Part shown: one piece after another, positions 34,224 through 64,000 of the stretch
How positions within the stretch are numbered: the first letter of the stretch is position 1
Layout of the letters: the number at the start of each line of letters is the position of its first letter
Program-made: the position numbers and the translations under genes
Notes under the pieces: generated by a model
What the model saw: the letters and a program-made list of their open reading frames with translations, nothing else
Told to the model about the DNA's origin: nothing
The model's database searches: none
Assembly (NCBI GenBank): GCA_964501435.1
Contig: CAZCTH010000001.1
Location: 2,656 to 66,655 of the forward strand
Direction: 5' to 3'
Length of the DNA stretch: 64,000 nt
Origin: an uncultured Spirochaetales bacterium
Lineage (GTDB): Bacteria; Myxococcota_A; UBA9160; UBA6930

Positions 34224-35348
34224 GTGGCGCTGCGCACTCGCGTCTGTGACTTGTTCGAAATCGAGTTCCCGATCGTGCTCGCTGGCATGGGCGGAGCCGC
34301 GACTCCGGAGCTCGCAGCCGCGGTTTCGAATGCCGGCGGCCTGGGCGTGCTCGGCGCCGCCGCCTGTGGGCCGAACCGACTGCGCGAGTGGATCCGCCGC
34401 ACTCGCCAGCTCACGAACAAGCCGTTCGGCGTCGACACGCTTCTGCCGGCTTCCGTGCGCCGCGGCGCGTTGCAGAAAAAGGCGGGGCCCTCTCCACTCG
34501 AGCAGCTGCCTTCGCTGCAGAAGTTCGCGCGCGAGTTCATGGAGCGAGAGGGTCTTTCCAGCGTCGACCTCGCCGCCGAGGAGGACGCGCTCGATCGCGG
34601 AGGTCCGGCTCCGCTCACCAAGGAATTCTTCGAAGCGCAGATGAAGGTGGTGGTCGAGGAGAAGGTCCCCGTATACGCGGCGGGCCTCGGCAATCCCGGC
34701 CCATACATCGACGCTCTGCACCGCAACGGCACGCGCGTAATGGCGGTCATCGGTCAGACGTATCACGCACGCCAAGTGGCTGAGTCCGGCGTCGACGCGA
34801 TCGTCGCCCAGGGCCACGACGGCGGCGGGCACAACGCGCCGATCGGCACACTCGCGCTGATTCCCCAAGTTCGCGACGCCATCGGCGACATTCCGCTGCT
34901 CGGCGCCGGAGGTATCGGCGACGGCCGCGGTGTCGCTGCGGCCCTCATGCTCGGCGCCGAGGGCGTGTGGATTGGCACGGCCTTTCTCGCGACGCGCGAG
35001 GCGGGGCTGCGCGATTTTCAGAAGGAAGCGCTCGTCGAGGCGACTGACGCAGGGACGACGATCTCGCGCTGCATCACGGGCAAGCCCGCGCGTGCACTTC
35101 GCTCCAAATGGACTTCGGCGTTCGAGGAGAGCAGGATCACGCCGCTTCCGATGCCCTACCAGTCGATGGTGGCGATGCCCGTGCTCGCCGCCGCGACTCG
35201 GGCGGACCGCAAGGACATCGCTCCCGGCTTCGCAGGGCAAGGGGTCGGATTGATCCGCGAAGTGCGCTCCGCCGCGGACGTGCTCCAAGACCTCGTGAAG
35301 GGCGCGGAGCGCGTGCTCAACGCGGCGCCGGCCTTCACCGGGCGCTGA
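34224..35348 (+). CDS. nitronate monooxygenase (NMO/2-nitropropane dioxygenase-like, FMN) family protein
   Basis: GTG at 34224 follows GGAGGAGAG. FEIEFPIVLAGMGGAATPELAAAVSNAGGLGVLG and GGIGDGRGVAAALMLGAEGVWIGT. Confidence 0.85.
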   Translation: MALRTRVCDLFEIEFPIVLAGMGGAATPELAAAVSNAGGLGVLGAAACGPNRLREWIRRTRQLTNKPFGVDTLLPASVRRGALQKKAGPSPLEQLPSLQKFAREFMEREGLSSVDLAAEEDALDRGGPAPLTKEFFEAQMKVVVEEKVPVYAAGLGNPGPYIDALHRNGTRVMAVIGQTYHARQVAESGVDAIVAQGHDGGGHNAPIGTLALIPQVRDAIGDIPLLGAGGIGDGRGVAAALMLGAEGVWIGTAFLATREAGLRDFQKEALVEATDAGTTISRCITGKPARALRSKWTSAFEESRITPLPMPYQSMVAMPVLAAATRADRKDIAPGFAGQGVGLIREVRSAADVLQDLVKGAERVLNAAPAFTGR

Positions 35349-35396
35349 GGCGAATTGCGCGGAGCCCGCACAAGCGGTCGCTCGAGAGGTCAGGCG

Positions 35397-36485
35397 ATGG
35401 ACTTCGGCGTACAGATGATCTTCCAGAGCTACGGCTACGGGCCCGGGGTCGACGACGGCCAGGTCGTCGCCGAGGAGATCCAACTCGGCGTGCTCGCGGA
35501 GGAGCTCGGCTTCGACAAGCTCTGGCCCGTCGAGCATCACTTCGAGGACTACGCGTTCTGTCCTGATAACACGCAGTTCCTCAGCTACATGGCCGCGCGC
35601 ACGCGGCGCATTGGCCTCGCCACCGGCGCAGTGATCCTGCCCTGGAACGACCCGCTGCGCGTGGCCGAGAAGATCAGCCTGCTCGATCACCTCTGCGGTG
35701 GTCGCACTGTCTTCGGCATGGGACGCGGTCTCGCGCGGCGGGAGTACATCCCCTTCCGCATCGAGATGGACAGTTCGCGCGAGCGCTTCGACGAGGCAGC
35801 GCCGATGATCCTCGCCGCGCTCGAGAGCGGGTTCATCGAGGGCCGTGGTCCCCACTACCCGCAGCCGCGCACGCCCATTCGCCCGCGCCCGTTCAAGTCG
35901 TTCCGCGGGCGCACCTACTGCGTCGCGATGTCGCCCGACTCGGTGCTCACCGCCGCGCGTCTCGGGGCGCAACCCGTGATGTTCAGCCAACGCGCTTGGG
36001 ACCAGGCGAAGGCCGCCATCGATCGATATCGCGAGGAGTTCACGAAGCATCACGCGGGAAGTCCGTTGCCACCGGTGACCTGCGACTTCGTCTACTGCGA
36101 CGAAGATCGCGCGCGCGCCGAAGACAAGGCCGCACGCCACATCACGGGCTACCTCACCAGCGTGCTCGGCCACTACGAGCTCGCCGGCGAGCACTTCAAG
36201 AGCGCCAAGGGTTACGAATCCTACGGCGCGGCAGTCGATACGCTTCGCCAGCTCGGACTCGACGCGCAGCTGAAGGCCTACCTCGCGGTGCAGATTTGGG
36301 GAACGCCCGAGATGTGTCTCGAGAAAATCGAGCAGCGGCGTGCGCTGCTCGGCGACTTCGACCTGACCTGTTGCTTCCGGTTCGCAGGCCTCCCGTACGC
36401 GGATGCCGAGCGCAGCATGCGCACCTTCGCGACGCACGTGATCGCGCCGCTGCGTGCGAGATACGGCGCGCCGGTCGCCGCCTGA
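35397..36485 (+). CDS. luciferase-like (LLM-class) flavin-dependent monooxygenase
   Basis: MDFGVQMIFQSYG..LGFDKLWPVEHHF is a typical LLM N-terminus on a TIM-barrel-length protein. Confidence 0.8.
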   Translation: MDFGVQMIFQSYGYGPGVDDGQVVAEEIQLGVLAEELGFDKLWPVEHHFEDYAFCPDNTQFLSYMAARTRRIGLATGAVILPWNDPLRVAEKISLLDHLCGGRTVFGMGRGLARREYIPFRIEMDSSRERFDEAAPMILAALESGFIEGRGPHYPQPRTPIRPRPFKSFRGRTYCVAMSPDSVLTAARLGAQPVMFSQRAWDQAKAAIDRYREEFTKHHAGSPLPPVTCDFVYCDEDRARAEDKAARHITGYLTSVLGHYELAGEHFKSAKGYESYGAAVDTLRQLGLDAQLKAYLAVQIWGTPEMCLEKIEQRRALLGDFDLTCCFRFAGLPYADAERSMRTFATHVIAPLRARYGAPVAA

Positions 36486-36496
36486 AGGAGCCCGCG

Positions 36497-37585
36497 ATGA
36501 AGACGTGCGCCGCGATGGTGCAGACCGGTCCGCGCAAGCTCGAGATGCGCTCGCTGCCGCTTCCGGAGATCGGCGACGAGGACGCGCTGCTGCGCATCGA
36601 GGCGTGCGGCATTTGCGGAAGCGACGTCGAGCAGTACCACGGCGCGCTGCGCCTTCCGTTTCCGCTGATTCCCGGCCACGAGCCGCTCGGCATCATCGAG
36701 CGCATCGGCGACCGCGCCGCGAAGCGTTGGGGCGTGGACGTAGGCGACCGCGTTGCCGTCGAGACGATGCTCGCCTGCAAGTTCTGCGAGGCGTGCCTAA
36801 CAGGCCGCTATCACCTGTGTCACACGCGTCGCATCTACTCGTACATCCCCCTCGAGCAGGAGCCGGGCCTTTGGGGCGCGTACGCCGAGTACATGTACCT
36901 CGCGGCGAACTCGGTCATTCACAAGATGGATCCCACGCTCCCGCCCGAGCTCGCGGTGTTGTTCAACCCGCTCGGCGCGGGCTTCCGCTGGGCGGTCGAG
37001 ATCCCGCAGACGCGCGCAGGCCAGAGCGTCGTGATCCTCGGGCCGGGCCAGCGCGGCCTCGCGAGCGTCGTCGCGGCACGGCACGTCGGCGCCGGCACTG
37101 TCGTCGTCACGGGCCTCGAGAGCGACGCACCCAAGCTCGCCCTCGCGCGCGAGTTCGGCGCCGACGTGACGGTCGACGTGCAGAACGAGGACGCTCGCAC
37201 GCGCATTCTCGAGGCCACGGGCGGCGGTGCCGACGTCGTCGTCGACGTCTCGGCCTACGCGACGGAGCCCGTCGCCTCGGCGCTCGACTACGTGAAGCCC
37301 GGCGGCACGATCGTGCTCGCCGGCGTGAAGGGCTACAAGCCCGTGCCCGACTTCATCTCCGACAAGATCGTGATGAAGGAGATCTCGGTACGCGGCGCGA
37401 TCGGCGTCACGACCACGGGCTACACGCAGGCGATCCGATTGATCGAGTCCCGGCGCGTTGCGCTCGAGAAGATGCACACGCACGACTTCAAGCTGAGCGA
37501 CGCCGAGGAGGCGATCCTCACGCTCGCAGGTGAAGCCGCGGGCCCACGCTCGATCCACTCGTGCCTCTTGCCGAGCTTGGGATAG
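36497..37585 (+). CDS. zinc-dependent medium-chain alcohol dehydrogenase/reductase
   Basis: ACGICGSDVEQYHG (catalytic Zn), CKFCEACLTGRYHLC (structural Zn) and ILGPGQRG (Rossmann fold). SD GAAGGAG upstream. Confidence 0.88.
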   Translation: MKTCAAMVQTGPRKLEMRSLPLPEIGDEDALLRIEACGICGSDVEQYHGALRLPFPLIPGHEPLGIIERIGDRAAKRWGVDVGDRVAVETMLACKFCEACLTGRYHLCHTRRIYSYIPLEQEPGLWGAYAEYMYLAANSVIHKMDPTLPPELAVLFNPLGAGFRWAVEIPQTRAGQSVVILGPGQRGLASVVAARHVGAGTVVVTGLESDAPKLALAREFGADVTVDVQNEDARTRILEATGGGADVVVDVSAYATEPVASALDYVKPGGTIVLAGVKGYKPVPDFISDKIVMKEISVRGAIGVTTTGYTQAIRLIESRRVALEKMHTHDFKLSDAEEAILTLAGEAAGPRSIHSCLLPSLG

Positions 37586-37594
37586 GAGGATGCG

Positions 37595-38752
37595 ATGACC
37601 GCTCCCATCGAGAGCATGCCGCTGGTCGACATCGACACCCACTTCACCGAGCCGCCCACGCTCTGGACGTCGCGTGCACCGGCGGCCCTGCGCGAGCTCG
37701 CGCCTCGCGTCGTGAGCAACGCCGAGGGCAAGCCGCAGTGGATCGTCGGGCGCGATCTCCCGCTCAGCCCACCCGGCTTCTGCGTCGTGCGGAGTGACGG
37801 CTCGAAGATCGCGGGCCGCTTCTCGCTCGAGACCTTCGAGGAGATGACGCCGGCCGCGAGTGACGCGGGCGCGCGGCTTCGCGTCATGGACGAGCTCGGA
37901 ATTCAGCTCCAGATCGTCTACCCGAACATTCTGGGCTTCGCGGGCGGATCGATCATGCGCGTCGAGGATCCGAAGCTTCGCGCCTTCTGCGTGACGGCGT
38001 ACAACGATGGCGTCGGGGAGCTGCAAGGGCGCGCGAGCGGGCGGCTGCTGCCTCAGGCCCTCATCCCCTTCTGGGACGTCCATCTCGCGGTGAAGGAGCT
38101 CGCGCGCTGTCGCGACGAGCTGAAGCTCTCGGGCTTCACGATGACGGATTCGCCCGAGGCGTGGGGCCAGCCGTCGCTGAACGACCGCTACTGGGATCCG
38201 CTCTGGGCCGCGGCGCAGGAGCGCGGCCTCCCGGTGAACTTCCACATCGGCTCCGGCGGCACCGGCGGCATCGTGTGGGGCGGAATGGACGTGCCCAGAA
38301 TGCTCGCCTCGATCTCGACGATCCTGTTCATGAACAACATGCGCTGCCTCGTGAACTTGATCTTCAGTGGGCTCCTCGATCGCTTCCCGACGCTGAACTT
38401 CGTCTCCGTCGAGAGCGGCATCGGCTGGATTCCGTTCCTGCTCGAAGCGTGCGAGTACCAGATGGACGAGAACGCGGTGCCGCTGAAGCTCCGGCCGCGC
38501 GAGTATTTCACGCGCCAGATTTACGCCTCGTTCTGGTTCGAACGCGAGGACGTTCCGCACAGCATCGGGCGGATTGGCGCGAACAACGTGATGGTGGAGA
38601 CGGACTTTCCGCATCCCACCTGTCTCTATCCCGGCCCGCGCAAGAAGCTCGAGCAGGCGCTCGCGCCGCTGCCGATCGCGGCGCAGCGCAAGATCCTCTA
38701 CGAGAACGCGGCGCGGGTCTACGGGCTCGACCTCCTGAGCTTGCAGCACTGA
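37595..38752 (+). CDS. amidohydrolase-2 (ACMSD-like metal-dependent hydrolase/decarboxylase) family protein
   Basis: VDIDTHFTEPP metal-binding N-terminus and METDFPHPTC near the C-terminus. Paralogue of 41366-42526. Confidence 0.8.
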   Translation: MTAPIESMPLVDIDTHFTEPPTLWTSRAPAALRELAPRVVSNAEGKPQWIVGRDLPLSPPGFCVVRSDGSKIAGRFSLETFEEMTPAASDAGARLRVMDELGIQLQIVYPNILGFAGGSIMRVEDPKLRAFCVTAYNDGVGELQGRASGRLLPQALIPFWDVHLAVKELARCRDELKLSGFTMTDSPEAWGQPSLNDRYWDPLWAAAQERGLPVNFHIGSGGTGGIVWGGMDVPRMLASISTILFMNNMRCLVNLIFSGLLDRFPTLNFVSVESGIGWIPFLLEACEYQMDENAVPLKLRPREYFTRQIYASFWFEREDVPHSIGRIGANNVMVETDFPHPTCLYPGPRKKLEQALAPLPIAAQRKILYENAARVYGLDLLSLQH

Positions 38753-39897
38753 TGGCGCGGCGCGCGGCCATCGTCGGCATCGGGCGCACGGCGTATAGCC
38801 GCGATTCCGGCCGCAGCACGCTGGCGCTCGGCGCCGAGGCCGCGCGGGCGGCGCTCGCGGACGCGGGGCTGGCGGGCGCGGACGTCGACGGCGCGGCCAC
38901 TTATCAGGTCGGCGACTCCGCCGCGCCGATGCGCGTCGCCCACGCGATCGGCGCGCCGGGTCTCGTCTGGAACCTGGATCTGATGGGCGGCGGAAACTAT
39001 GCGACGAGCGTCGTCGCGAACGCGGCGCTCGCCGTCGAGGCGGGCGCGTGCGAAGTCGCGCTCGTCTACCGCGCGCTGAACGGGCGCTCGGGGCACCGCT
39101 TCGGCCGCGCCGACGGCGCCCTGCGCGTCGGCGGGGAAGCGCAGTTCGCTGCGCCGCACGGCTACCTCACGCCGCCGCAGTGGATGGCGATGTGGACGCG
39201 CGAGCACCAGCGCGTCTATCGCAGCACCTGCGAGGACCTCGGACGCATCGCGGTGACTCAGCGTGCCCATGCCGCCGAGAACCCCCACGCTCTTCAGCGC
39301 CGGCGCATCACCCTGGACGACTACTTCGCCGGCCGCGTCATCAACGAGCCGCTGCGCATCTACGACTGCGCCCTCGAGGTGGATGGGGCGGTCGCGCTCG
39401 TGCTCACGACGCGCGAGCGCGCGCGCGACTTGCGGCAGAAGCCGATTGCGCTGCTCGGCCACGCCGAGTTCACGGGGCAGGGCGGCTCGTGGGATCAGTG
39501 GCCCGATCTCGCCTCGATGTACTCGGCGCATGCCGGTCCCGCGCTATGGAAGCGGAGCGGCCGCACGCCGAGTGAGGTCGACGTGGCCTGCATGTACGAC
39601 TGCTTCACCACGACCGTGATGATCACGCTCGAGGAGTTCGGCCTGTGCGAGCGCGGCGCCGTGGGACGCTTCTTCGCAGAAGGGCGGGCGACCTTTGGAG
39701 GCGATGTCGTCGTGAATCCGCACGGCGGGCTGCTCTCCGAGGGCTACATCCATGGGCTGAATCACAGTTACGAGGCCGTCCTTCAGCTGCGCGGTCTGGC
39801 TGGCGCGCGGCAGGTGAAGGACGCGCGGACGGCGCTCGTCACCGCGGGCGCCGGTCCGTACGGCGGCGGGATGCTGCTCGCGGAGGCGCCGGAGTGA
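38752..39897 (+). CDS. thiolase-fold lipid-transfer-protein (Ltp/SCP-x-type) enzyme
   Basis: MARRAAIVGIGRTAYSRDSGRS.. and C-terminal NPHGGLLSEGYIHGLN. Start overlaps the previous stop. Confidence 0.8.
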   Translation: MARRAAIVGIGRTAYSRDSGRSTLALGAEAARAALADAGLAGADVDGAATYQVGDSAAPMRVAHAIGAPGLVWNLDLMGGGNYATSVVANAALAVEAGACEVALVYRALNGRSGHRFGRADGALRVGGEAQFAAPHGYLTPPQWMAMWTREHQRVYRSTCEDLGRIAVTQRAHAAENPHALQRRRITLDDYFAGRVINEPLRIYDCALEVDGAVALVLTTRERARDLRQKPIALLGHAEFTGQGGSWDQWPDLASMYSAHAGPALWKRSGRTPSEVDVACMYDCFTTTVMITLEEFGLCERGAVGRFFAEGRATFGGDVVVNPHGGLLSEGYIHGLNHSYEAVLQLRGLAGARQVKDARTALVTAGAGPYGGGMLLAEAPE

Positions 39898-40313
39898 GCC
39901 GCGATCTCCCGCCGCAGCCGCGTCCGGACGCGGACACTGCTCCCTTCTGGGAGGCAACTCGCGCCGGCAAGCTCGCGCTTTGCCGCTGCAGCGCATGCAA
40001 GCGCTGGCACCAGCCCCCGCTCGAGCGCTGTCGCGCCTGCGGAGCCCCGACGCGCTTCGAGGAGGTCGCCGGGACGGGCAGACTCGCGAGCTTCATCGTC
40101 GTGCGGCATCCGGCCGTGCCCGGCTACTTGCACGACCTCCCCTATGTGGTGGGCCTGGTCGAGCTCGACGAGCAGCGCGGCCTGCGTCTGCCCGGCCGCA
40201 TCGTCGGCGCAGAGCCCGAGGCGCTCGCGATCGGACAGCCGGTGAGGGCTGAGCTCGTGCCGCTCGCCGGGGGCGAGGAGAAGGTCGCCGTGTTTCGGTG
40301 CACCGGCGCGTGA
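39894..40313 (+). CDS. DUF35 OB-fold / zinc-ribbon protein (thiolase partner)
   Basis: CRCSACKRWHQPPLERCRACG rubredoxin-like ribbon followed by an OB-fold. GTGA overlap with the thiolase-like gene. Confidence 0.8.
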   Translation: MSRDLPPQPRPDADTAPFWEATRAGKLALCRCSACKRWHQPPLERCRACGAPTRFEEVAGTGRLASFIVVRHPAVPGYLHDLPYVVGLVELDEQRGLRLPGRIVGAEPEALAIGQPVRAELVPLAGGEEKVAVFRCTGA

Positions 40314-40341
40314 CCCATAACAAGCACTGGAGAACCAGGCG

Positions 40342-40707
40342 ATGACCCACGAGGAGAAGCTTCGGCTCGCGAGGAGACTCACCGACGCGCTGCCAGCGCC
40401 CGAGGAGATCCGCGACGACTGGGGGATGTTCATCGTCGACACCGTGCTCCCGAACGGCGTGTGGTCGCGCAAAGGCCTCTCGCAGCGGGACCGCAGTCTG
40501 ATCACCGTCGCTGCGCTCACCGCGCTTCATCGACCGAACGAGCTGAGGCTCCACCTGAGCCGTGCGCTCGAGAACGGCGTCACGCGCGCCGAGCTGAGCG
40601 AGCTGATCATGCACATGGCGATCTACGGCGGCTTCCCGGTCGCCGTCGAGGGCATGCGCATCGCGCGCGAGGTGTTCGACGCAGCCGACGCGAGCAAGCG
40701 GAAGTAG
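40342..40707 (+). CDS. carboxymuconolactone decarboxylase (AhpD-like) family protein
   Basis: 121 aa. SQRDRSLITVAALTALHRPNELRLHLSRALENGVTRAELSELIMHMAIYGGFP. Confidence 0.8.
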   Translation: MTHEEKLRLARRLTDALPAPEEIRDDWGMFIVDTVLPNGVWSRKGLSQRDRSLITVAALTALHRPNELRLHLSRALENGVTRAELSELIMHMAIYGGFPVAVEGMRIAREVFDAADASKRK

Positions 40708-40714
40708 GCACGCC

Positions 40715-41191
40715 GTGTCGCGTCCGCGCAAAGCGAGTCGCGCGCGAAAGCGAGCCGCTCGGAAGACGGGTTCGCTCGCGGCGCGCCTGCGCGCCGTCGA
40801 GGATCGCGACGAGATTCGCGAGCTGACTGCGCGCTATTGCCACGCGGTGGCCGCTGGCGACGCGGAGGCGATCGTCGGGCTCTTCTGCGAGGACGGCGTC
40901 TTCGAGATGAACGGGCGCCCCGTCGTCGGGCGCGCGGAGCTCGCCAAGTTCTACGGCGCCGTTGCGGGCACGCCGCCGATTCCGTTCATCCAGAATCACG
41001 TCGTCGCGCTGAACGGCGACACGGCCACCGGTCGCTGCTCGGTCGAGATCCGCGTCGTGCAGAACGGCGAGGCGTACACGGCCGCGGGCTGGTACGACGA
41101 TGCGTATCGGCAGGAAGCGCGAGGCTGGCGCTTCGCCCAGCGCAAGTTCCACGTCTTCCACTGGGTGCCGCTCGCGAAGGGCTGGGCGTGA
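40715..41191 (+). CDS. SnoaL-like / NTF2-fold protein
   Basis: RLRAVEDRDEIRELTARYCHAVAAGDAEAIVGLFCEDGVFEM.. is the typical NTF2-like pattern. Start uncertain. Confidence 0.7.
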   Translation: MSRPRKASRARKRAARKTGSLAARLRAVEDRDEIRELTARYCHAVAAGDAEAIVGLFCEDGVFEMNGRPVVGRAELAKFYGAVAGTPPIPFIQNHVVALNGDTATGRCSVEIRVVQNGEAYTAAGWYDDAYRQEARGWRFAQRKFHVFHWVPLAKGWA

Positions 41192-41365
41192 GACGCGCGC
41201 GGGTTTCCCGGTTCCGTGGTGGCGAAGTCAGCGGAGCGTCACGCCGGCGTCGTTGCGGATCGGAAACGTGGTAGCATGTTGAGAAACGACCCTGTGTTTC
41301 GGCGTGCAGTGAAACGCGTGCCGGGGCCGGATCAACCCGAACGACTCTCGTCGATGGAGTGCCTC

Positions 41366-42526: not shown

Positions 42527-42541
42527 CGAACGGAGCCGCCC

Positions 42542-43378: not shown

Positions 43379-43393
43379 GCGGTGCTGACCAAA

Positions 43394-43599
43394 TGGAGGC
43401 GAACGTGAAGGTGATCGTCGACTACGACTTGTGCGAGGCGAACGCAGTTTGCATGGGCTGCTGCCCTGACGTCTTCCGCGTCGAGGACGACGACTCGCTC
43501 ACGGTGCTGATGGACGAGATTCCCGAGCCGCTGCGCGCGCGCGTCGCGGAAGCGGTCCGGCTCTGTCCTCGCCAAGCGCTTCGCTTCAGCGAGCGCTGA
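43394..43599 (+). CDS. small [3Fe-4S]/[4Fe-4S]-type ferredoxin
   Basis: KVIVDYDLCEANAVCMGCCPDVFRVEDD..CPRQAL. Start ambiguous: ATG 43394, or GTG 43405 preceded by GGAGG. Confidence 0.75.
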
Positions 43600-44719: not shown

Positions 44720-44789
44720 GAGGCCGGGCACGCCGCATGCGCGCAGCGTCTCGCACCGGGGCGCCGTGCGATGGAGAGATCACGCGATC

Positions 44790-55873: not shown

Positions 55874-55883
55874 AGGAGCAGCG

Positions 55884-57140
55884 ATGAGCGAGACCAGCGA
55901 AGCGTTCGTGCGCGCCGAGGTGCGCGACTGGCTGGGCACCCAGTGGAGCCCGAGCCTCAGCCTACGCGAATGGCGAAGTCGGCTCGCCGACTCGGGCTGG
56001 GGCTGTCCAACGTGGCCGAGGGAATGGCACGGGCAGGGCCTGCCCGTTGCGCTCGCGGACGTGGTGAACGAGGAGTTCCGCAAGGCGGGCGCGATCGGGA
56101 TTCCGCAGGGTCCGGGGCCGACGCTCGCAGGGGCGACGCTGCTCGAGCACGCGAACGACGGGCAGAAGCGCCGCTTCCTGCGTCGAATTGTCACGGGCGA
56201 GGACACCTGGTGTCAGCTGTTCAGCGAGCCGGGTAGCGGATCGGATCTCGCCGGACTCACCACGCGCGCCGATCGCGACGGCGACGAGTGGATCGTCAAC
56301 GGGCAGAAGGTTTGGACGACGAGCGCGCACCACGCGCGCTACGGGATGCTGCTCGCGCGCACGAACTGGGACGTTCCCAAGCACCGGGGCATCACCTTCT
56401 TCGTGATCGACATGCAGCAGAGCGGCGTGGTCGTTCGCCCGCTGCGCCAGATGAACGGCCACGCCTCGTTCAACGAGGTGTTCTTCACCGACGCGCGCAT
56501 CTCGGCGGACAACGTGGTTGGCGAGGTCGGCCAAGGCTGGACCGTCGCGCTCGCCACCCTCGCACACGAGCGCCGGCTCGCCGACGGCATGCGCTCGCTC
56601 GGCCAAGCGCCGCGCACGTCGGGCCGCGTTTTCGACGAGTATCGCGCCGAGACCGCATCCGTGATGGAGCCGTACAAGTGGTATCCGCAGCGCGCCGGCC
56701 GGCCGGATCTCGTGGTCGCACGCGCGAAGGCGACGGGCCGAGATCGCGATCCGGTCGTGCGCCAGGCGATCGCGAAGGTCTTGATCCTCGCGCGCTCGGC
56801 CGAATGGACCGCGCAGCGCGCGCGCGCTGCGCGCGTGCTGGGCCGCCCACCTGGGCCGGAGGGCAGCTTGGGCAAGCTCGCTGCCAGCCACGTCGCGCGC
56901 GCTGCGGCCGACGCGCACACGCTGATCGCGGGTGCCGACGCGATGCTCGCGCGCGGCGACAGCCCCGAGGGCGGCGTGATCGGCGAGGTGCTCATCTCGG
57001 TACCGGCCGTGTCGATCGCGGGCGGCACAGACGAGATCCAGCGGAACATTTTGGGGGAGCGTGTGCTCGGCCTCCCCAAAGAACCGGCGGATGACGCCGG
57101 GCGGCCCTTCCGCGACGTGCCGAAGAACCTCGCGAGGTAG
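55884..57140 (+). CDS. acyl-CoA dehydrogenase family protein (pair 1, subunit B)
   Basis: ATG at 55884 follows GAAGGAG. QLFSEPGSGSDLAGLTTRA, WIVNGQKVWTS and IAGGTDEIQRNILGERVLGLP. Confidence 0.88.
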   Translation: MSETSEAFVRAEVRDWLGTQWSPSLSLREWRSRLADSGWGCPTWPREWHGQGLPVALADVVNEEFRKAGAIGIPQGPGPTLAGATLLEHANDGQKRRFLRRIVTGEDTWCQLFSEPGSGSDLAGLTTRADRDGDEWIVNGQKVWTTSAHHARYGMLLARTNWDVPKHRGITFFVIDMQQSGVVVRPLRQMNGHASFNEVFFTDARISADNVVGEVGQGWTVALATLAHERRLADGMRSLGQAPRTSGRVFDEYRAETASVMEPYKWYPQRAGRPDLVVARAKATGRDRDPVVRQAIAKVLILARSAEWTAQRARAARVLGRPPGPEGSLGKLAASHVARAAADAHTLIAGADAMLARGDSPEGGVIGEVLISVPAVSIAGGTDEIQRNILGERVLGLPKEPADDAGRPFRDVPKNLAR

Positions 57141-57217
57141 GCCGGCCAGCCGGCGGAAAATTCACGCCGCGCACGCGCGGGCAGCGCTGCGGCTGTTTGT
57201 TACGGGCGCGACGCAGC

Positions 57218-58423
57218 TCAGCTCGGTGGGCGGCGGTCCTTCGGCAGCCCCAGGCCGCGTTCGGCGATGATATTGCGCTGGATGTGCGCCGTGCCGCCGC
57301 CGATGTGGAGGCCGAGCGCCCACATGCCCTGACTGATCCAGCCGCCGCTGCCCGACGGCGCTGCAGACATGAGGTGCTCCTTCTGGCCCGGCGCCGCGAG
57401 GCCGTCCGCTTCGAGCAGCTCGAGGGCGAGGCGTGAGACGCGCAGCGAGATCTGCGTCGAGTTGAGCTTGTTCATCAGCATGACGGAGCCTGGATGCTGT
57501 CGCCGCGCCGCGGCGGTCATCTGGCGCCACATCGACGTGCGCTGCGCGAGCACCTCGGCCTCGATCTCGACGAGCTGCTGCCGCACGCCGGGATCCTCGA
57601 TCGCGGGCCGCCCGGCGCGCTTGCGGTCGCGCGCCAGCGCGACCAGGCTCTCGAATAGCACGCGCTGAAAGTCGGCGTCGCCGATCATGTTGCGCTCGTG
57701 CTTGAGCGTCGTGTTGGCGATCTTCCACCCCTCGCCGCGGGCGCCGACGAGATTCTCCTTGGGCGCTCGCACGTCGGTGAAGAACACCTCGTTGAAGTCC
57801 GCGGTGCCGGTCATCTGGCGCAGCGGACGCACTTCGAGCCCTGGCGTCTTCATGTCGATCAGCAGATACGAGATACCGGCGTGCTTCGGGGCGTCGGGCT
57901 CGGTGCGACAGAGGCAGAACATCCAGTGCGCCTCGTGCGCGAGGCTCGTCCAGATCTTTTGCCCGTTGATCACCCAATGATCGCCGCGCAGCTCCGCGCG
58001 CGTGCGGAGCGACGCGAGGTCGCTGCCGGCGCCGGGCTCGCTGTAGCCCTGACACCAGACGAGTTCGCCGAGGAGCGTCGGGGGCACGAAGCGCTCGCAC
58101 TGTGCGGGAGTCCCATGCTCGAGCAGCGTGGGAATCAGCATCGCCGTGCCCGATCCGCGCACCTCGGACGGCGCGCCCGCTCGCGCCACCTCCTCGGCGA
58201 TGATCGCTGCTTTGAGCACGTCGGGCGCCTGCTCGGAACCGCCGTAGCGGCGCGGCACACCGCGCGCGTAATAACCCGCTTCCGTGGCGCGCTGCCGGAA
58301 GAGCCGGGCCTGCGCGGGCGCGGAGAGCGAACCTTCGGCTCCCGAGAGCGGCCAGTGGGTCTTCAGGAACGCCCGCAACTCGCCGCGAAATGTCTCGTAG
58401 GCCTCGCTGTACCGGAGATCCAT
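57218..58423 (-). CDS. acyl-CoA dehydrogenase family protein (pair 2, subunit B)
   Basis: Start moved to the ATG at 58423 (MDLRYSEAYETFRGEL..). QGYSEPGAGSDLASLRTRA, WVINGQKIWTS and IGGGTAHIQRNIIAERGLGLP. Confidence 0.88.
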   Translation of the reverse strand: MDLRYSEAYETFRGELRAFLKTHWPLSGAEGSLSAPAQARLFRQRATEAGYYARGVPRRYGGSEQAPDVLKAAIIAEEVARAGAPSEVRGSGTAMLIPTLLEHGTPAQCERFVPPTLLGELVWCQGYSEPGAGSDLASLRTRAELRGDHWVINGQKIWTSLAHEAHWMFCLCRTEPDAPKHAGISYLLIDMKTPGLEVRPLRQMTGTADFNEVFFTDVRAPKENLVGARGEGWKIANTTLKHERNMIGDADFQRVLFESLVALARDRKRAGRPAIEDPGVRQQLVEIEAEVLAQRTSMWRQMTAAARRQHPGSVMLMNKLNSTQISLRVSRLALELLEADGLAAPGQKEHLMSAAPSGSGGWISQGMWALGLHIGGGTAHIQRNIIAERGLGLPKDRRPPS

Positions 58424-58433
58424 GGTTCCTCGC

Positions 58434-59507
58434 TCACCAGCCCGCGAGCTGCGCACAGCTCTCGCGCAGCGCAGTCGGCGTTCCGAACAACACGCGATCC
58501 ACGAGCGCGCGCCGATACCAGAGGTGCACGTCGCACTCCCAGGTGAAGCCGATGCCGCCGTGGAGCTCGATTGCCTTGCGCGCCGTTTCGAGGTAGCGGT
58601 CCGTGAGGTGCGCCTTCGCGAGCGCCGCGAGCCGCTCCGCCTCGTTCGGGAATGCGTCCCACGCGTGCGCCGCGTACCAGAAGAGGCCACGCGAGGGCTC
58701 GGTGCGCAGCGCGAGGTCGGCGAGGTCGTGCTTCACGGCTTGAAACTGCGCGATCGACTGCCCGAACTGTTCGCGTGTGCGGGCGTAGGCGACGGACATC
58801 TCGACGAGTCGCTGCGAGCCGCCAAACGCGTCCGCGGCGAGCAGCACACGTGCCGCGTCGCGCACGCGCGCGGCGGCTCCCTTCGCTCGCGCAAGCGGCT
58901 CACAGGGCGCGCGGTCGAGGCGGAGGGTGGCGAGCGACCGCGTGCGATCCGCGCTCTCTTCGGCCGACACCGATGCGGCACCGCGCTCGACGATGGCCAG
59001 CCGGTCTCCCTTCGCCGCGACGACGATCACGTCGGCGAGCTCGCCCGCTGGGACCCGGCAGAGCACGCCGCTCGCACGCCCGCGCTCGATTCGCGTGCGA
59101 GTGGAAGCGGGCGCGATCCCGCCGCTCGCGTCTTCGAGGGCGACGGTCCCGATGAGTTCGCCTGCCGCGAGCGGTCCGAGCCAGCGTTTGCACTGCGCGT
59201 CACTGCCCGCGAGCGAGATAGCGAGGCCCGCGAGGCTGTGGCCGAGGAACGGCCCCGGCGCCGCGCTCTCGCCCAACACCTCGGCGATCAACGCGGCATC
59301 GAGCAGCTCGAGGCCGGCGCCGCCCCAGCGCTCGGGGATCAGCAGGCCGCCGAGCCCGAGCTGACAACTGCTCTTCCACAGCTCCGGCGCGTGCCCTGCG
59401 CCGCTCTCGAAGGTGCGGCGCACCACGGCGGGCGAGCATTCGCGAGCGTGAAGCTCGCGGGCGGATTGCTGGAGTAGGAGCTGCTCGTCCGAGAGTCCGA
59501 AGTCCAA
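58434..59507 (-). CDS. acyl-CoA dehydrogenase family protein (pair 2, subunit A)
   Basis: MDFGLSDEQLLLQQSARELH.. with C-terminal IELHGGIGFTWE. It ends 10 nt before the next ACAD start. Confidence 0.85.
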   Translation of the reverse strand: MDFGLSDEQLLLQQSARELHARECSPAVVRRTFESGAGHAPELWKSSCQLGLGGLLIPERWGGAGLELLDAALIAEVLGESAAPGPFLGHSLAGLAISLAGSDAQCKRWLGPLAAGELIGTVALEDASGGIAPASTRTRIERGRASGVLCRVPAGELADVIVVAAKGDRLAIVERGAASVSAEESADRTRSLATLRLDRAPCEPLARAKGAAARVRDAARVLLAADAFGGSQRLVEMSVAYARTREQFGQSIAQFQAVKHDLADLALRTEPSRGLFWYAAHAWDAFPNEAERLAALAKAHLTDRYLETARKAIELHGGIGFTWECDVHLWYRRALVDRVLFGTPTALRESCAQLAGW

Positions 59508-59528
59508 CTCGATCCTCCTCCTGGCAGC

Positions 59529-60599
59529 TCAGCTGCGCGGGGCAGCATCGGCTTGCGCCACCGCGGCGGCGGCGCGCGCGCTTCCGCCCGCGGAGAGGCG
59601 CGCCAACGCGTGGGTCGTCTCGGTGACGAGCCGCTCGACGATCTCTCCCGCCGGCCGCACGTCCCGAATCACGGCGGCAGACTGGCCGGCCGCGAGCGCG
59701 CCGATCTCGACGTCGCCCTCGCGCCGACCCGCGATGTAGGGATCCTTGCCCAGCCACTTCCCGATCACCCCGAACTGGCGTGGGAAGGGGAGGATCTGCG
59801 CCTGCAGCTCAGGCGCCTCCCACGCGGAGGTAGTGCGATTGCGAATGACCCGGCAGGGCTTGCCGCTGAAGCAGCGCGTGCGGATCGTGCCCTCGTCGTC
59901 GATCTCGACCACGCGCTGCTTGTAGTTGTCGTGCGAATAGGCCTCAGCGCTCGCGATGAAGCGAGTGCCGAGCCATACGCCCACGGCCCCCAGCGCGAAC
60001 GCCGCTGCGATCTGGCGCCCATCCGCGATGCCGCCCGCGGCGACGACCGGGACGTCGACGGCGTCGACGATTGCCGGCACGAGCGCGAGCGTCCCGACCC
60101 GTCCCGTGTGCCCGCCGCCGTCGTAGCCCTGGGCGACGACGACGTCGACGCCGCTGCGCGCGACGCGGCGCGCGTTGCGCGTGTTGCCGACGAGCGCGAG
60201 CACCTTCATCCCGAGCGAGTGCGCGGTCGGCACCGCCGGCCCTGGGTCGCCGAGGCCGCTCGCGAGCACCGCCACACGCTCCTCGAAGACGACGTCGAGC
60301 TGACGCTCCACCTCGCTCGTGAAACGGACCGTGGCGGCATCGCTCTGTGGCCTGCCGACGGTCGCGAACAGGATGTCGACGCCGAACGGGCGGTCCGTCG
60401 CGTCCTTGACCTTGCGGATCTCCTCGCGCAGCTCGGCGGCGCTCAGCGATGCGGCACCGATTACACCGAGGCCGCCCGCCCGCGAGACCGCGGCGCACAG
60501 ATCGGCGCGCGCGACGTAGCCCATGCCCGCCTGCAGGATCGGGTGACGAATCCCCAACACGTCACAGAGGGGCGTCGCGATCGGCGAGGGCGTGGACAC
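59529..60599 (-). CDS. nitronate monooxygenase (NMO) family protein
   Basis: LGIRHPILQAGMGYVARADLCAAVSRAGGLGVIG and AAGGIADGRQIAAAFALGAVGVWLGTRF. Start is uncertain (GTG 60599 or ATG 60689). Confidence 0.82.
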   Translation of the reverse strand: MSTPSPIATPLCDVLGIRHPILQAGMGYVARADLCAAVSRAGGLGVIGAASLSAAELREEIRKVKDATDRPFGVDILFATVGRPQSDAATVRFTSEVERQLDVVFEERVAVLASGLGDPGPAVPTAHSLGMKVLALVGNTRNARRVARSGVDVVVAQGYDGGGHTGRVGTLALVPAIVDAVDVPVVAAGGIADGRQIAAAFALGAVGVWLGTRFIASAEAYSHDNYKQRVVEIDDEGTIRTRCFSGKPCRVIRNRTTSAWEAPELQAQILPFPRQFGVIGKWLGKDPYIAGRREGDVEIGALAAGQSAAVIRDVRPAGEIVERLVTETTHALARLSAGGSARAAAAVAQADAAPRS

Positions 60600-60809
60600 G
60601 GCGTGCGCTCCGAGTGTCGTACGAGCCCGGTGAGAGGCTCCGGCGCACGTTACCACCGCGGTTTCCGATATGACAACGACGGCTTCCAATCAGAAACGCA
60701 GGCGACCGACGGTCCGATGCGGGTGCTTGTGTATCCGATCGGAAACAGCGTACTCTCATCGGGCCGGAGCGGGCGCTCGCATCCGGGGCCGACCTGAAAC
60801 GGAGGCGAG

Positions 60810-61715
60810 ATGGCGAGACTGTGCGAAGGGCGAATCGTGATCGTGACGGGCGCGGGGCGAGGCATCGGCCGCGAGCACGCGCTCGAGTTCGCCCGCCAGG
60901 GCGCGCGCGTCGTGGTGAACGACCTCGGCGGTGCGGTGGACGGAACGGGTACTTCCACGTCGCCGGCGATGGAGGTGGCGGAAGAGATCCGCAAGGCCGG
61001 CGGGGAAGCAGTCGCAAGCAGCGACGACATCTCCGACTACACGGGTGCGCAGCGGCTGATCGAAGCGGCGGTCCGCACGTTCGGTGGCCTCGACGTGCTG
61101 GTCTGCAACGCGGGCATCTTGCGCGACCGCATGCTCGTCAACATGGAGGAAGCCGAGTGGGACGCCGTGATGCGCGTGCACCTGAAGGGCACGTTCGCCC
61201 CTGCGCGTCACGCCGCGGCCTATTGGCGCGAGCGCCACAAGGCGGGCAAGCCGGCCGACGCGCGCATCATCACCACGAGCTCAGCCTCGGGTCTGTTCGC
61301 GAATCCGGGGCAGACGAACTACGCCGCAGCGAAGGCGGGCATCGCCGCCTTCACGCTCGTCGCGGCCAAGGAGCTCGAGCGTTACGGCATCACGGCAAAC
61401 TGCATCGCCCCGGGCGCGCGCACGCGCATGACGACGCCGCTCGGCTTCGGCGGAGCTGAGCCCAAGGGCGGCTTCGACCCATTCTCACCCGAGAACATCT
61501 CCCCCCTCGTGGTCTGGCTCGGCAGCAGCGAATCGCGCGGCATCACCGGGCGCGTCTTCGAGGTGATGGGCGGGCGCATCGGAGTGGCAAACGGCTGGAC
61601 CCGCGGACCCGAGGCGCACGTCGACCGGCGCTGGGACCCCAGTGAGGTCGGCGGTGTGGTGCACGACCTGCTGGTCAAGGCGCCTGCGCCCGAGCCGGTA
61701 TTCCGGCCGAGGTAG
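60810..61715 (+). CDS. short-chain dehydrogenase/reductase (SDR)
   Basis: VTGAGRGIGRE cofactor motif and the catalytic Ser...YAAAK (YxxxK) motif. Confidence 0.88.
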   Translation: MARLCEGRIVIVTGAGRGIGREHALEFARQGARVVVNDLGGAVDGTGTSTSPAMEVAEEIRKAGGEAVASSDDISDYTGAQRLIEAAVRTFGGLDVLVCNAGILRDRMLVNMEEAEWDAVMRVHLKGTFAPARHAAAYWRERHKAGKPADARIITTSSASGLFANPGQTNYAAAKAGIAAFTLVAAKELERYGITANCIAPGARTRMTTPLGFGGAEPKGGFDPFSPENISPLVVWLGSSESRGITGRVFEVMGGRIGVANGWTRGPEAHVDRRWDPSEVGGVVHDLLVKAPAPEPVFRPR

Positions 61716-61717
61716 CC

Positions 61718-62737
61718 GTGCCGAACGCCCCGCTTGCGTGCCAGCGCTACGGCCGCGTGCTGCGGATTCCTACGCCGACGGTATTCGCCGTCGGCGACAT
61801 CAACGTCTACGTGATCCTTCCCGAGGGAGGCCGCGGTGGCCCCATCCTGATCGACACGGGGGTTCGCACGGACGCCGCGTGGGCTGCGCTCGAGTCCGGC
61901 CTCGGCGCGCACGGCTTCAAGGTGCGCGATCTCGAGCTCGTGCTGCTGACCCACGCGCATCCCGATCACTTCGGCCAGGCCGCGCGCATCCGCCGCGCGG
62001 CGGGCTGTGAGGTGTGGCTCCACGAGGACGCAGGGCATTCACTCGCCCGCTTCAGCGGCGATTCACTCACGGGCGAGCGGCTCGAGGTCGCGCGCCATCA
62101 CATGCGCGCATGGGGCGTGCCCGAGGAGCGCACGGGAGACGTGCGCGGCTCGTCGGACGCGAGCGCGGTCGTCGATCCGCTCGAGCCGGATCGCTGGCTC
62201 ACCGATGGCGACCTGATCGACATTCCGGGCTTTCGGCTGCGCACGGTGCACACGCCCGGCCACTGTCCGGAGCAGGTGGTCTTCGTGCAGGAGGAGCAGC
62301 GTCTCGCGTTCTCCGGCGATCATCTGCTCCCCGACATCACGCCCGTGTGCCTGATCCAGTTTCCCGATCGCATCGAGGATCCGCGCAAGCCGAGCCTGCT
62401 CGAGTACGAGCGTTCGCTCACGAAAGCTGACGCGCTTGCGCTCTCGCTCGTGTTTCCGAGCCATGGAGACGTCATCACCGACGCGCCCGGACTGATCGCG
62501 TCCTACCGGCGCCACATCGAGAGCCGAAGGCACAAGGTCGAGAGCGCGCTCCGCGAGGCCGAGCTCACGGCCTACGCGCTCGCGGAAGCTCTCTTCGGAC
62601 GCGCGGTCGAGAGTCAGCTCTTGCTCGTCATGTCCGAGGTCGTGGGCCACCTCGATTCGCTCATCGCCGACGGCCGAGTCGTCGAGCGCGCGCGGAGTGG
62701 CGTGCGCTTCTACTCGTGCCGCGATTCCTCTGACTGA
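61718..62737 (+). CDS. metallo-beta-lactamase-fold hydrolase
   Basis: LLTHAHPDHFG (HxHxDH) with later HTPGH and PSHGD ligand motifs. Confidence 0.85.
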   Translation: MPNAPLACQRYGRVLRIPTPTVFAVGDINVYVILPEGGRGGPILIDTGVRTDAAWAALESGLGAHGFKVRDLELVLLTHAHPDHFGQAARIRRAAGCEVWLHEDAGHSLARFSGDSLTGERLEVARHHMRAWGVPEERTGDVRGSSDASAVVDPLEPDRWLTDGDLIDIPGFRLRTVHTPGHCPEQVVFVQEEQRLAFSGDHLLPDITPVCLIQFPDRIEDPRKPSLLEYERSLTKADALALSLVFPSHGDVITDAPGLIASYRRHIESRRHKVESALREAELTAYALAEALFGRAVESQLLLVMSEVVGHLDSLIADGRVVERARSGVRFYSCRDSSD

Positions 62738-62759
62738 TCTGCGCGAAGGAGACGACGCC

Positions 62760-64000
62760 ATGGCCGCTTGGCGCGAGGAGTATCAGCGACGCCTCACGAC
62801 CCCCGAAGCCGCGGTGAGCCGCGTTCGAGCTGGCGACGTCGTGAACATCCCGATCTTCCCGCCCACGCGGCTCTTGGATGCGCTCTGGAAAAGGCGCGAC
62901 GAGCTCGCGCAAGTCGCGATTCAGCTCAACGCCACCTCGCACGACCCGGGCTGGCTCAAGGCCGATCCCGCGAGCTCTCCGTTCACCCTCGAGTTCGAGA
63001 TTTTCATCGGCGATTTTGCGCGTCCGGCCCACGACGACGCGCGTGGCGTTTATCTCCCCAACCTCTTCTCGACATCCTTCAAGCCCGGCGACGAGCAGCG
63101 ACCCACTCACCGGCCGCCGACCGTGGCGATGGTGGTCTGCTCGGAGCCCAACGAGGCGGGCTTCGTTCACTTCGGCGCGCATCACTGGACCAAGCGCAGC
63201 CTGGTTCGCCGCGCGGAAGTCGTGCTCGCGGAAGTGCGCTCCGACCTGCTTGCGGTGTGCGGCGACGTGTGGGCGCACGTGACGGAGTTCGACGCGTTCG
63301 TCGAAGTGGGACCCGTCCAGATCACTCCCGAGCGGATCGAGACGCTGCTCGCGTCGGTTCCCGACGAGCGCCGCGAGAAGCTGCGCGCCCTGATTCCGCG
63401 CATTCCGCGCGATCGTTTGCCCGGCGCCTTCCCGCTGCTTCCCGTCATGGAGCCGTCGGCGCTCGAGCGCGCGCTCGGGTTGGGTGCGCCGCCGGAGACC
63501 TACCGCGCGATCGCGGGTTACCTCTCGGAGGTGGTGCAGGACGGCGACTGCATCCAGATCGGCGTCGGTGAACCGTCGAGCACGATGATTCGCCTCGGCG
63601 CATTCGATCGGAAGCACGATCTCGGCGTCCACACCGAGCTGATCGCGCCCGGGACCGCGCAGCTCGTCGAGGCCGGCATCATCACGGGCCGACGCAAGAA
63701 CCAGTTCCCGGGCAAGGTCGTCGCCGCAGCGTGGACCGGCGGCAGCAACGAAGACTTCGCGATCATCGCGTCGAATCCGAACTTCCAGCTCTTCGACCCC
63801 GAGTTCGTGCTGCACATTCCGCGCATCGCGGCGAACGACAACCAGGTCTCGATCAACAACGCTCTTTCGATCGACCTGATCGGGCAGATCAACTCCGAGA
63901 CCGTGCTCGGCCGGCGCATGATCAACGGCACCGGCGGTCAGCCCGAGACTCACCTCGGTGCATTCCTCTCGAAGGGCGGGCGGGCCGTCACCCTGCTGCC
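62760..64000 (+). CDS. acetyl-CoA hydrolase/transferase (4-hydroxybutyrate CoA-transferase-like) family protein, 3'-truncated by the window edge
   Basis: Not in the ORF track because no stop is reached. My own translation from ATG 62760 (SD AAGGAG upstream) begins MAAWREEYQRRLTTPEAAVSRVRAGDVVNIP and continues to ...DLGVHTELIAPGTAQLVEAGIITG...VSINNALSIDLIGQINSETV..GGQPE. Confidence 0.8.
   Translation, partial: MAAWREEYQRRLTTPEAAVSRVRAGDVVNIPIFPPTRLLDALWKRRDELAQVAIQLNATSHDPGWLKADPASSPFTLEFEIFIGDFARPAHDDARGVYLPNLFSTSFKPGDEQRPTHRPPTVAMVVCSEPNEAGFVHFGAHHWTKRSLVRRAEVVLAEVRSDLLAVCGDVWAHVTEFDAFVEVGPVQITPERIETLLASVPDERREKLRALIPRIPRDRLPGAFPLLPVMEPSALERALGLGAPPETYRAIAGYLSEVVQDGDCIQIGVGEPSSTMIRLGAFDRKHDLGVHTELIAPGTAQLVEAGIITGRRKNQFPGKVVAAAWTGGSNEDFAIIASNPNFQLFDPEFVLHIPRIAANDNQVSINNALSIDLIGQINSETVLGRRMINGTGGQPETHLGAFLSKGGRAVTLL

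Follow-up and report, generated by a model that had tools for sequence, protein, structure and literature searches.

A putative catabolic island for bulky alicyclic acids beside a conjugative module in an uncultured Myxococcota_A bacterium

The window analysed in this study is a 64,000-nucleotide stretch of contig CAZCTH010000001.1 (assembly GCA_964501435.1, forward-strand positions 2,656 to 66,655) from an uncultured Spirochaetales bacterium that GTDB places in Myxococcota_A. An island of catabolic genes begins at position 34,224 of the window, and a conjugative module lies upstream of it. On the gene families present, we believe with moderate confidence that the island encodes the aerobic, coenzyme A (CoA)-thioester-dependent breakdown of a bulky alicyclic or polycyclic carboxylic acid. 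Terpenoid or resin-acid-like, naphthenic, and steroid-like compounds are the candidate substrate classes. If this is true, the island would give an uncultured lineage a compact, possibly mobile toolkit for hindered polycyclic acids such as resin and naphthenic acids or fragments of terpenoids and steroids. The family assignments, the active-site residues and a nine-gene core in another organism are observed directly; the order of the steps and the class of substrate are what we infer. The island is otherwise an ordinary catabolic cluster, and the lead that stands out is its Amidohydro_2 (AH2) proteins.

Genes were called from third-position GC content (GC3) in a window whose GC content is 63–72%, and each call was cross-checked against Pfam. 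Thirty genes were recovered between 34,224 and 64,000 (Table 1), and all island families were also confirmed with Pfam and NCBIfam. The run of at least 30 catabolic genes is unbroken, with 0 housekeeping genes among them, and GC3 is even throughout (0.878, SD 0.028). An initial annotation, made from the letters alone, had described a CoA-dependent oxidative catabolic island here, and the gene families found support that description. Every family on its list (three NMO, three luciferase-like monooxygenase (LLM) and two amidohydrolase-2 genes, Ltp/DUF35, a split MaoC, two acyl-CoA dehydrogenase (ACAD) pairs and the others) was recovered using Pfam, and the XRE-cupin gene is indeed the only regulator in the island. 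The list was incomplete, however, as it overlooked the HIBADH-like dehydrogenase.

The island had also been given a span of 30 kb ending at 64 kb, which is too short. A 9.1-kb Logan contig (L001), 100% identical over 58,534–64,000, extends the sequence by 3,673 nt to the equivalent of ∼67,673, and the island runs at least that far. The extension completes the CoA-transferase (489 aa), which is followed by a second DUF35 gene, a second thiolase-like gene and a second split MaoC pair. On the opposite strand, divergent from this DUF35/thiolase/MaoC operon, lies a third Amidohydro_2 gene, AH2-3 (L001 8537–9139, equivalent to window positions 67070–67672). The second DUF35/thiolase/MaoC module is highly conserved across phyla. 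A lookup through the second thiolase for further rightward extension gave shorter contigs only.

The strongest evidence for joint function comes from a relative with 60% GC (locus L010), in which nine orthologues of island genes are contiguous within 11 kb at 65–83% identity, though in reshuffled order. These are AH2-2 (83%), the Ltp protein (79%), the HIBADH-like dehydrogenase (78%), the SDR (76%), AH2-3 (75%), the CoA-transferase (74%), ACAD2 (73%), ACAD1 (68%) and DUF35 (65%). The pairing of AH2-2 with the HIBADH-like gene is also kept. Because this core is conserved, we consider that the nine genes probably work together. No transfer genes are in view on the L010 contig.

In the pathway that we propose, the family-I CoA-transferase would activate the acid, and two alpha/beta ACADs would desaturate the hindered acyl-CoAs. 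MaoC-type and crotonase hydratases would add water, and SDR, MDR and HIBADH-like enzymes would oxidise the hydroxyls so formed. Beta-hydroxyacyl-CoAs that are out of reach for thiolases would be cleaved by an Ltp2-type retro-aldolase, which the DUF35 zinc ribbon would hold. Ring ketones would be lactonised by a Baeyer-Villiger monooxygenase (BVMO) of the PockeMO/PtlE clade, possibly also by the LLMs; hydrolytic ring opening would come next, and the MBL-fold hydrolase is a candidate lactonase. Served by the small ferredoxin, the DitZ/PtmU3-related AH2 proteins and the Rieske oxygenase, which has an alpha subunit only, may hydroxylate unactivated carbons, and the NMO-family flavoenzymes would act as enoyl reductases.

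The carbon-carbon cleavage step is assigned as follows. The thiolase-like protein is a predicted Ltp2-type retro-aldolase, and its best solved relative is TcLtp2, the aldolase of steroid side-chain degradation in Thermomonospora curvata (6OK1, chain 6OK1_A; 254 bits). Tyr282, within the motif YDCF, and Tyr335 align with Tyr294 and Tyr344 of TcLtp2, the two tyrosines that act as catalytic base and acid (PMC12329534). True thiolases have their nucleophilic Cys in a loop that here reads GGGNYATS, with no Cys. The protein was assigned to the aldolase type because both catalytic tyrosines are kept and the nucleophile is missing. The motif YDCF is intermediate between those of TcLtp2 (YDHF) and CtSal (YDCY). 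A DUF35 gene encoding a Cys4 ribbon lies directly downstream, so that the Ltp-type thiolase with DUF35 named in the initial annotation was borne out.

Four ACADs form two paralogous pairs, with 37% identity within each class (large and short). The large subunits, ACAD2 and ACAD3, lack the YEG Glu but keep a Glu at a position that we take, from a comparison of motifs rather than aligned IVD or LCAD sequences, to be the helix-G base (IVD/LCAD-type). ACAD1 and ACAD4 are shorter, end early and have a catalytic Glu at neither position. For ACAD2, the one large subunit that was searched, the best solved relatives are Tcur3483 and ChsE4, both from alpha2beta2 enzymes; for ACAD1 generic butyryl-CoA dehydrogenases come first and Tcur3481 is sixth. 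A catalytic alpha and a beta subunit also make up ChsE4-ChsE5 (PMC11153573). Both pairs thus look like alpha2beta2 heteromers, and the heteromeric ACADs suggested earlier agree with this adjacent large-catalytic plus short-noncatalytic anatomy, as predicted from sequence. The nearest NCBIfam model for both large ACADs is the large subunit of pimeloyl-CoA dehydrogenase, PimC, and the architecture is therefore not steroid-specific. The solved relatives of the MaoC pair are HadAB, HtdX and similar dehydratases, and no ChsH1-ChsH2-type match was found among solved structures at E≤1e-5. For the crotonase the nearest model is that of EchA19, at 306 bits and thus below its cut-off of 400.

These enzymes bear on the first alternative, a genuine sterol or bile-acid cluster with side-chain and C/D-ring (HIP-type) steps. 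In its favour, the solved structures nearest to the thiolase-like protein (Ltp2) and to ACAD2 (Tcur3483, from an IpdE-type pair, and ChsE4) are steroid enzymes, and EchA19 is the nearest model for the crotonase. NMO-family reductases act in HIP catabolism (IpdC). Like the steroid side-chain machinery (ChsE, ChsH1-ChsH2, Ltp2-DUF35, EchA19), the island combines an Ltp2-like protein and DUF35 with adjacent ACADs, a two-gene MaoC and an EchA19-near crotonase. Here, however, DUF35 stands alone instead of being fused to MaoC, the aldolase motif is YDCF and not YDHF, and the MaoC pair is nearer to HadAB. Moreover, that machinery is actinobacterial or proteobacterial, whereas the closest named relatives here are in metagenome-assembled genomes (MAGs) labelled Myxococcota or ‘Deltaproteobacteria’. 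The Rieske alpha subunit (Ring_hydroxyl_A) resembles biphenyl-, CntA- and GbcA-type alpha subunits and not KshA. No KstD, KshA-type Rieske, HsaA/C/D or IpdAB-type CoA-transferase was found using Pfam in 34–67.7 kb. Since the enzymes that degrade the nucleus were not found, a strict steroid cluster is improbable. The steroid-degradation hallmarks of the initial annotation were therefore set aside, as the nucleus genes (KstD, KshA-type, HsaA-D, IpdAB) are missing from the genes found and its ‘signature’ enzymes point elsewhere (large ACADs to PimC, MaoC to HadAB, Rieske away from KshA); breakdown of an alicyclic carboxylate is preferred.

The BVMO likewise points to a bulky alicyclic substrate. 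Among solved structures it scored 441 bits with PockeMO (5MQ6), 275 with PAMO and 224 with steroid monooxygenase, with CHMO and OTEMO also at ≤275. On the model for PtlE, neopentalenolactone D synthase (NF045818), it scored 772.6 bits, below the equivalog cut-off of 1100. By these scores it belongs with the PockeMO/PtlE polycyclic-ketone clade and is not a PtlE equivalog. It shares with PockeMO, PtlE and large-ring-ketone BVMOs the form of a 614-aa type I enzyme with an N-terminal extension, but it differs from PtlE in score and in its catabolic rather than biosynthetic context. As a side observation on the other candidate lactonising enzymes, LLM3 scored 417 bits on TIGR03617, a family of F420-dependent LLMs with a cut-off of 278.

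The two AH2 proteins inside the window, AH2-1 and AH2-2, share 60% identity. Among solved structures AH2-2 is closest to DitZ (108 bits) and PtmU3 (94 bits), and not to hydrolases or decarboxylases. A subfamily profile was built from 28 family members, and with it DitZ and PtmU3 both scored 147 bits while everything else scored ≤75 and decarboxylases ≤65. An AlphaFold model of AH2-2 (pLDDT 89.7) was compared with solved folds using Foldseek, which gave TM scores of 0.84 for DitZ, 0.76 for PtmU3 and about 0.68–0.70 for ACMSD. Both DitZ and PtmU3 belong to the amidohydrolase-related dinuclear oxygenase (ARO) superfamily and are di-iron enzymes that hydroxylate C-H bonds; the substrate of DitZ is dehydroabietic acid (PMC13154177). 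AH2-1 and AH2-2 are thus most likely the nearest relatives of these oxygenases, and an oxygenase-like role is predicted for them from sequence and model. The two amidohydrolase-2 genes of the initial annotation keep their Pfam family, but they are closest to DitZ and PtmU3 in both sequence and predicted fold, and their probable oxygenase-like nature alters how the pathway is read.

Two motifs define the ARO superfamily, D-x-H at the N-terminus and D-x-P-H-x-D/E at the C-terminus (PMC13154177). The first, which lies on the first beta strand, is present as D-T-H in AH2-1 and D-A-H in AH2-2. At the C-terminus both proteins read D-F-P-H-P-T, and the canonical pattern does not match. The form D-x-P-H-[PA]-T occurs in 117/120 closest homologues, and AH2-1, AH2-2 and >100 of their closest relatives carry D-[FYV]-P-H-P-T where AROs have D-x-P-H-x-D/E. 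Of the seven site residues, six are present, and residues D18, H20, H221, E278, D345 and H348 are invariant in the 28 relatives. Because the last motif residue is Thr, we did not file AH2-1 and AH2-2 as ARO members. In AH2-3, which shares 31% identity with PtmU3, the motif is complete (D-F-P-H-T-D); AH2-3 is a fragment whose N-terminus is off the contig end. The family of AH2-2 has >3,783 matches at E≤1e-20, with named members from Deltaproteobacteria, Myxococcota, Myxococcales and Thermodesulfobacteriota MAGs. A large Amidohydro_2 subfamily shares the invariant pattern D-x-D-x-H...H...E...D-x-P-H-P-T-C.

The AH2 proteins have in common with DitZ and PtmU3 the PF04909 TIM barrel and the D-x-H, central His, Glu and D-x-P-H residues, but the identity is only about 23–31%. 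A small ferredoxin, of the 4Fe-4S type, is encoded two genes downstream of AH2-2, whereas the usual ARO partner, a small Rieske ferredoxin, was not found beside the AH2 genes. Abietane diterpenoid (dit) clusters likewise combine DitZ-like proteins, SCPx-type thiolase-like proteins, a ferredoxin, Rieske components and CoA-dependent steps. The window differs from them in having no DitA alpha/beta dioxygenase pair, extradiol dioxygenase or P450, and the similarity to DitZ is remote. The D-x-P-H-P-T subfamily, >3,700 ‘amidohydrolases’, holds the closest relatives of DitZ and PtmU3 and falls outside the motif now used for annotating such oxygenases. The activity of one member would tell whether present counts understate the oxygenase superfamily substantially.

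PtlE and PtmU3 both come from antibiotic biosynthesis, and this raises a second alternative, a terpenoid-like tailoring cluster for a natural product. The 773-bit score on the PtlE model, the place of PtmU3 among the two best AH2 relatives and the 31% identity of AH2-3 to it would fit such a cluster. However, no terpene synthase, prenyltransferase, PKS, NRPS, resistance gene or exporter was found among the called genes using Pfam, the island is dominated by ACADs, hydratases, the aldolase and the CoA-transferase, and the other best AH2 relative, DitZ, is catabolic. We consider a biosynthetic cluster very unlikely. A more specific form of the catabolic proposal, which is speculative and to which we give little credence, is a counterpart of platensimycin A-ring cleavage beside or on a conjugative element. 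ARO-type proteins would beta-hydroxylate alicyclic acyl-CoAs whose quaternary alpha-carbon blocks the dehydrogenase/hydratase route, and Ltp2/DUF35 would then make the C-C cut. In this form of the proposal one of the oxygenases is canonical and PtmU3-like, and two are of the D-x-P-H-P-T subfamily, which a search with the published motif would miss.

One of the three NMO genes, NMO2, is frameshifted. Compared with its paralogue NMO3, residues 4–252 align in one frame to 53,463 and residues 295–341 in another from 53,655, where the C-terminal GDxxxG...GQ motif continues. The identical sequence is present in the Logan assemblies of SRR14271338, SRR14271339 and SRR14271334, and we therefore regard the break as genuine and not as an assembly slip. 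NMO2 is a probable pseudogene or else a recoding site; on the opposite strand the NUDIX gene overlaps it with its 3' end. Three NMO loci had been listed in the initial annotation, and all three are there, but they are not all intact.

Several points weigh against a single pathway for a bulky acid. The functional assignments are all predictions by homology, at 25–55% identity to characterised enzymes, and AH2-1 and AH2-2, in which the final carboxylate of the published oxygenase motif is missing, are oxygenase candidates only. Neither the window nor the 3.7-kb extension was found to encode a transporter, CoA ligase, ferredoxin reductase or ring-cleaving dioxygenase. The island is spread over at least seven transcription units on both strands; together with the pseudogene this means that it may serve several substrates. 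Farther AH2 homologues occur in mixed contexts, frequently beside CoA-transferases or thiolases. A tight linkage of AH2 to Ltp/DUF35 across the wider family was considered and rejected, as Ltp or DUF35 was nearby in 3/31 loci with enough flanking sequence.

In a third alternative there is no single pathway, and the island would have grown by accretion of paralogous modules for oxidoreductase and beta-oxidation steps, of a kind common in such high-GC uncultured lineages, that serve several unrelated substrates. Its operons are both divergent and convergent, and there are two ACAD pairs, two Ltp/DUF35 pairs and two MaoC pairs, besides three genes each for NMO, LLM and AH2. One NMO copy has decayed, just nine genes are conserved together in L010 and in other order, and AH2 homologues are found in many contexts. 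Against accretion stand the unbroken run of at least 30 catabolic genes, in which housekeeping genes are missing and only one regulator occurs, the uniform GC3, the chemically coherent set of enzymes and the nine-gene core kept at 65–83% identity in an organism of different GC. We regard accretion as rather unlikely, and breakdown of a bulky alicyclic or polycyclic acid remains the preferred reading.

The adjacent conjugative module is a possible carrier of the island. The island had been said to start about 500 bp beyond the first transfer-operon gene, and the gap between the HTH_17 gene and NMO1 is 504 nt. Adjacency to a conjugative module thus holds, while the suggested check for an integrase further right gave none on the 3.7-kb extension. 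The scaffold of Tn4371-type elements consists of rdfS, traF, rlxS, traG and trbBCDEJLFGI, with an int and a parB/repA/parA module (PMC2789088). The module shares with the Tn4371 and ICEMlSymR7A integrative and conjugative elements (ICEs) an rdfS-like HTH_17 gene, traF, a DUF3363/VirD2 relaxase, traG, trbBCDEJLFGI-type genes (Pfam families T2SSE, TrbC, VirB3, TrbE, TrbJ-like, TrbL, VirB8, CagX and TrbI) and accessory DNA beside the backbone. In Tn4371 maps traG and the trb operon are co-oriented, and such elements end in 8-bp TTTTYRT direct repeats. Here, by contrast, the tra (−) and trb (+) operons are convergent, and 9 kb of defence and other genes (CBASS, type IIG restriction-modification, RadC, DUF6908) lies between them. 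No integrase or partition genes (parB/repA/parA) were found using Pfam in 1–64,000 or the extension, of a source contig of 127.6 kb. The comparison with Tn4371-type elements in the initial annotation was therefore right in gene content but not in orientation. An integrating element is argued for by the excisionase-like gene. As the transfer region holds no integrase, the element must reach into at least one flank, and a Tn4371 layout would put int and par on the island side.

The relaxase is 31–39% identical to proteobacterial plasmid relaxases. The closest TraG relatives are 68–77% identical and the named ones are in Myxococcota MAGs; the nearest named relatives overall are in Myxococcota or ‘Deltaproteobacteria’ MAGs. 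The order HTH_17-traF-relaxase-traG is shared by two relatives (L107 and L018), and the backbone common to relatives consists of HTH_17, traF, relaxase, traG, a 158–179-aa ORF, DUF6908 or ArdC, and RadC. These relatives carry defence and signalling genes and not catabolic ones. Upstream of the rdfS-like gene L017, L018 and L107 have variable DNA, with no integrase within 7–10 kb. Nucleotide similarity to L107 spans 28,543–33,761 and ends 42 nt upstream of the rdfS-like gene. GC3 steps up at ∼33,761, to 0.88 across the island from 0.80 for the transfer genes, with 0.73 for the left flank (p = 2e-7). All other assemblies found to span the traF/NMO1 junction show it unchanged. In the window neither tRNA or tmRNA genes nor att-like long direct repeats were found, and the extension likewise gave no tRNA or att-like repeat. 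The breakpoint at 33,761 fits a cargo hot-spot and an element end equally well. The island lies directly outside the conserved backbone and may, at slightly less than even odds, be cargo of an ICE-like element; otherwise it is adjacent host DNA.

Table 1. Features of the catabolic island and of the transfer region (window positions).
Feature	Position	Strand	Evidence
trb operon: trbB, trbC, trbD, trbE, trbJ, trbL, virB8, virB9, virB10-like	10943-19916	+	Pfam
TraG coupling protein (T4SS-DNA_transf)	28915-30996	-	Pfam
DUF3363/VirD2-type relaxase	31079-32959	-	Pfam
TraF, S26 peptidase (Peptidase_S26)	32956-33501	-	Pfam
HTH_17, excisionase/RdfS-like, 73 aa, first tra-operon gene	33498-33719	-	Pfam on identical Logan contig
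NMO1, FabK/NMO-family flavoenzyme, putative enoyl reductase	34224-35348	+	Pfam, NCBIfam
LLM1, luciferase-like monooxygenase (Bac_luciferase)	from 35397	+	Pfam, NCBIfam
MDR zinc alcohol dehydrogenase	36497-37585	+	Pfam, NCBIfam
AH2-1, Amidohydro_2, DitZ/PtmU3-related	37595-38752	+	Pfam, motif
Ltp2-type thiolase-like protein (Thiolase_C_1)	38752-39897	+	Pfam, alignment
Stand-alone DUF35, Cys4 zinc ribbon	39894-40313	+	Pfam, alignment
CMD/AhpD-family protein	40342-40707	+	Pfam
SnoaL/NTF2-like protein	about 40715-41191	+	Pfam
AH2-2, Amidohydro_2, DitZ/PtmU3-related	41354-42526	+	Pfam, profile, structure model
HIBADH-like (3-hydroxyisobutyrate-dehydrogenase-like) dehydrogenase, NAD_binding_2	42542-43378	+	Pfam, NCBIfam
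Small 4Fe-4S-type ferredoxin	43393-43599	+	Pfam
PdxA-family dehydrogenase	43700-44719	+	Pfam
Type I BVMO, PockeMO/PtlE clade, 614 aa	44790-46634	+	Pfam, NCBIfam, structure-database comparison
Rieske oxygenase alpha subunit, no beta	46714-47871	-	Pfam, NCBIfam
Crotonase	47920-48771	-	Pfam, NCBIfam
XRE-HTH + cupin regulator	48876-49511	+	Pfam
LLM2	from 49540	+	Pfam
Split MaoC hydratase pair	50820-51266, 51263-51688	+	Pfam
LLM3	51741-52763	+	Pfam, TIGR03617
NMO2, frameshifted, probable pseudogene	52741-53874	+	Pfam, paralogue alignment
NUDIX hydrolase, 268 aa	53816-54622	-	Pfam
ACAD pair 1: ACAD1 (short, 376 aa) from 54743, ACAD2 (large, 418 aa) from 55884	54743-57140	+	Pfam, alignment
ACAD pair 2: ACAD4 (short) from 58434, ACAD3 (large) from 57218	57218-59507	-	Pfam, NCBIfam
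NMO3, FabK/NMO family	59529-60599	-	Pfam, NCBIfam
SDR, PRK07791 subfamily, above cut-off	from 60810	+	Pfam, NCBIfam
MBL-fold hydrolase	from 61718	+	Pfam
CoA-transferase, acetyl-CoA hydrolase/transferase family (AcetylCoA_hyd_C)	from 62760, cut at window end	+	Pfam

The only repeats within the window are the AH2, NMO and ACAD paralogues. Promoter and terminator scans were at chance level, and Rfam gave 0 matches. When the MBL protein was compared with genome contigs, relatives were found at ≤45% identity only and showed no synteny. An exact 40-mer from the end of the window matched nothing among viral or metagenome contigs, and a plasmid collection contained nothing close. The literature, searched with the run accessions, gave nothing on the environment of the samples.

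Between the trb and tra operons, 20143–25640 holds a CBASS oligonucleotide cyclase (SMODS), a patatin phospholipase effector and a single-polypeptide type IIG methylase/BsuBI-PstI endonuclease; RadC and DUF6908 genes follow these defence genes, before traG. At the same position, relatives of the element hold other defence genes (SIR2, RES, MmeI-like restriction-modification). Just upstream of trbB, at 8707–10704, a UvrD-family helicase scored 137 bits on Gabija GajB models; its neighbour is DUF3419, and there is no adjacent GajA-like gene. The left flank (266–8552), which has the lowest GC3 of the window (0.73), encodes an MMPL/RND transporter, a large histidine kinase, a sigma-54 response regulator, a LolA-like protein and DUF3419, and might be a lipid-export unit.

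An orthologue of the second thiolase (78% identity) was found in another metagenome (L105, 1–21155), within a cluster that contains two Rieske alpha/beta dioxygenases and BphC- and LigB-type extradiol dioxygenases. LLM, Amidohydro_2 and NMO genes, a P450, a BVMO, a TetR regulator and an MFS transporter are also present, and the cluster looks like a fuller pathway of the polycyclic-aromatic or diterpenoid type.

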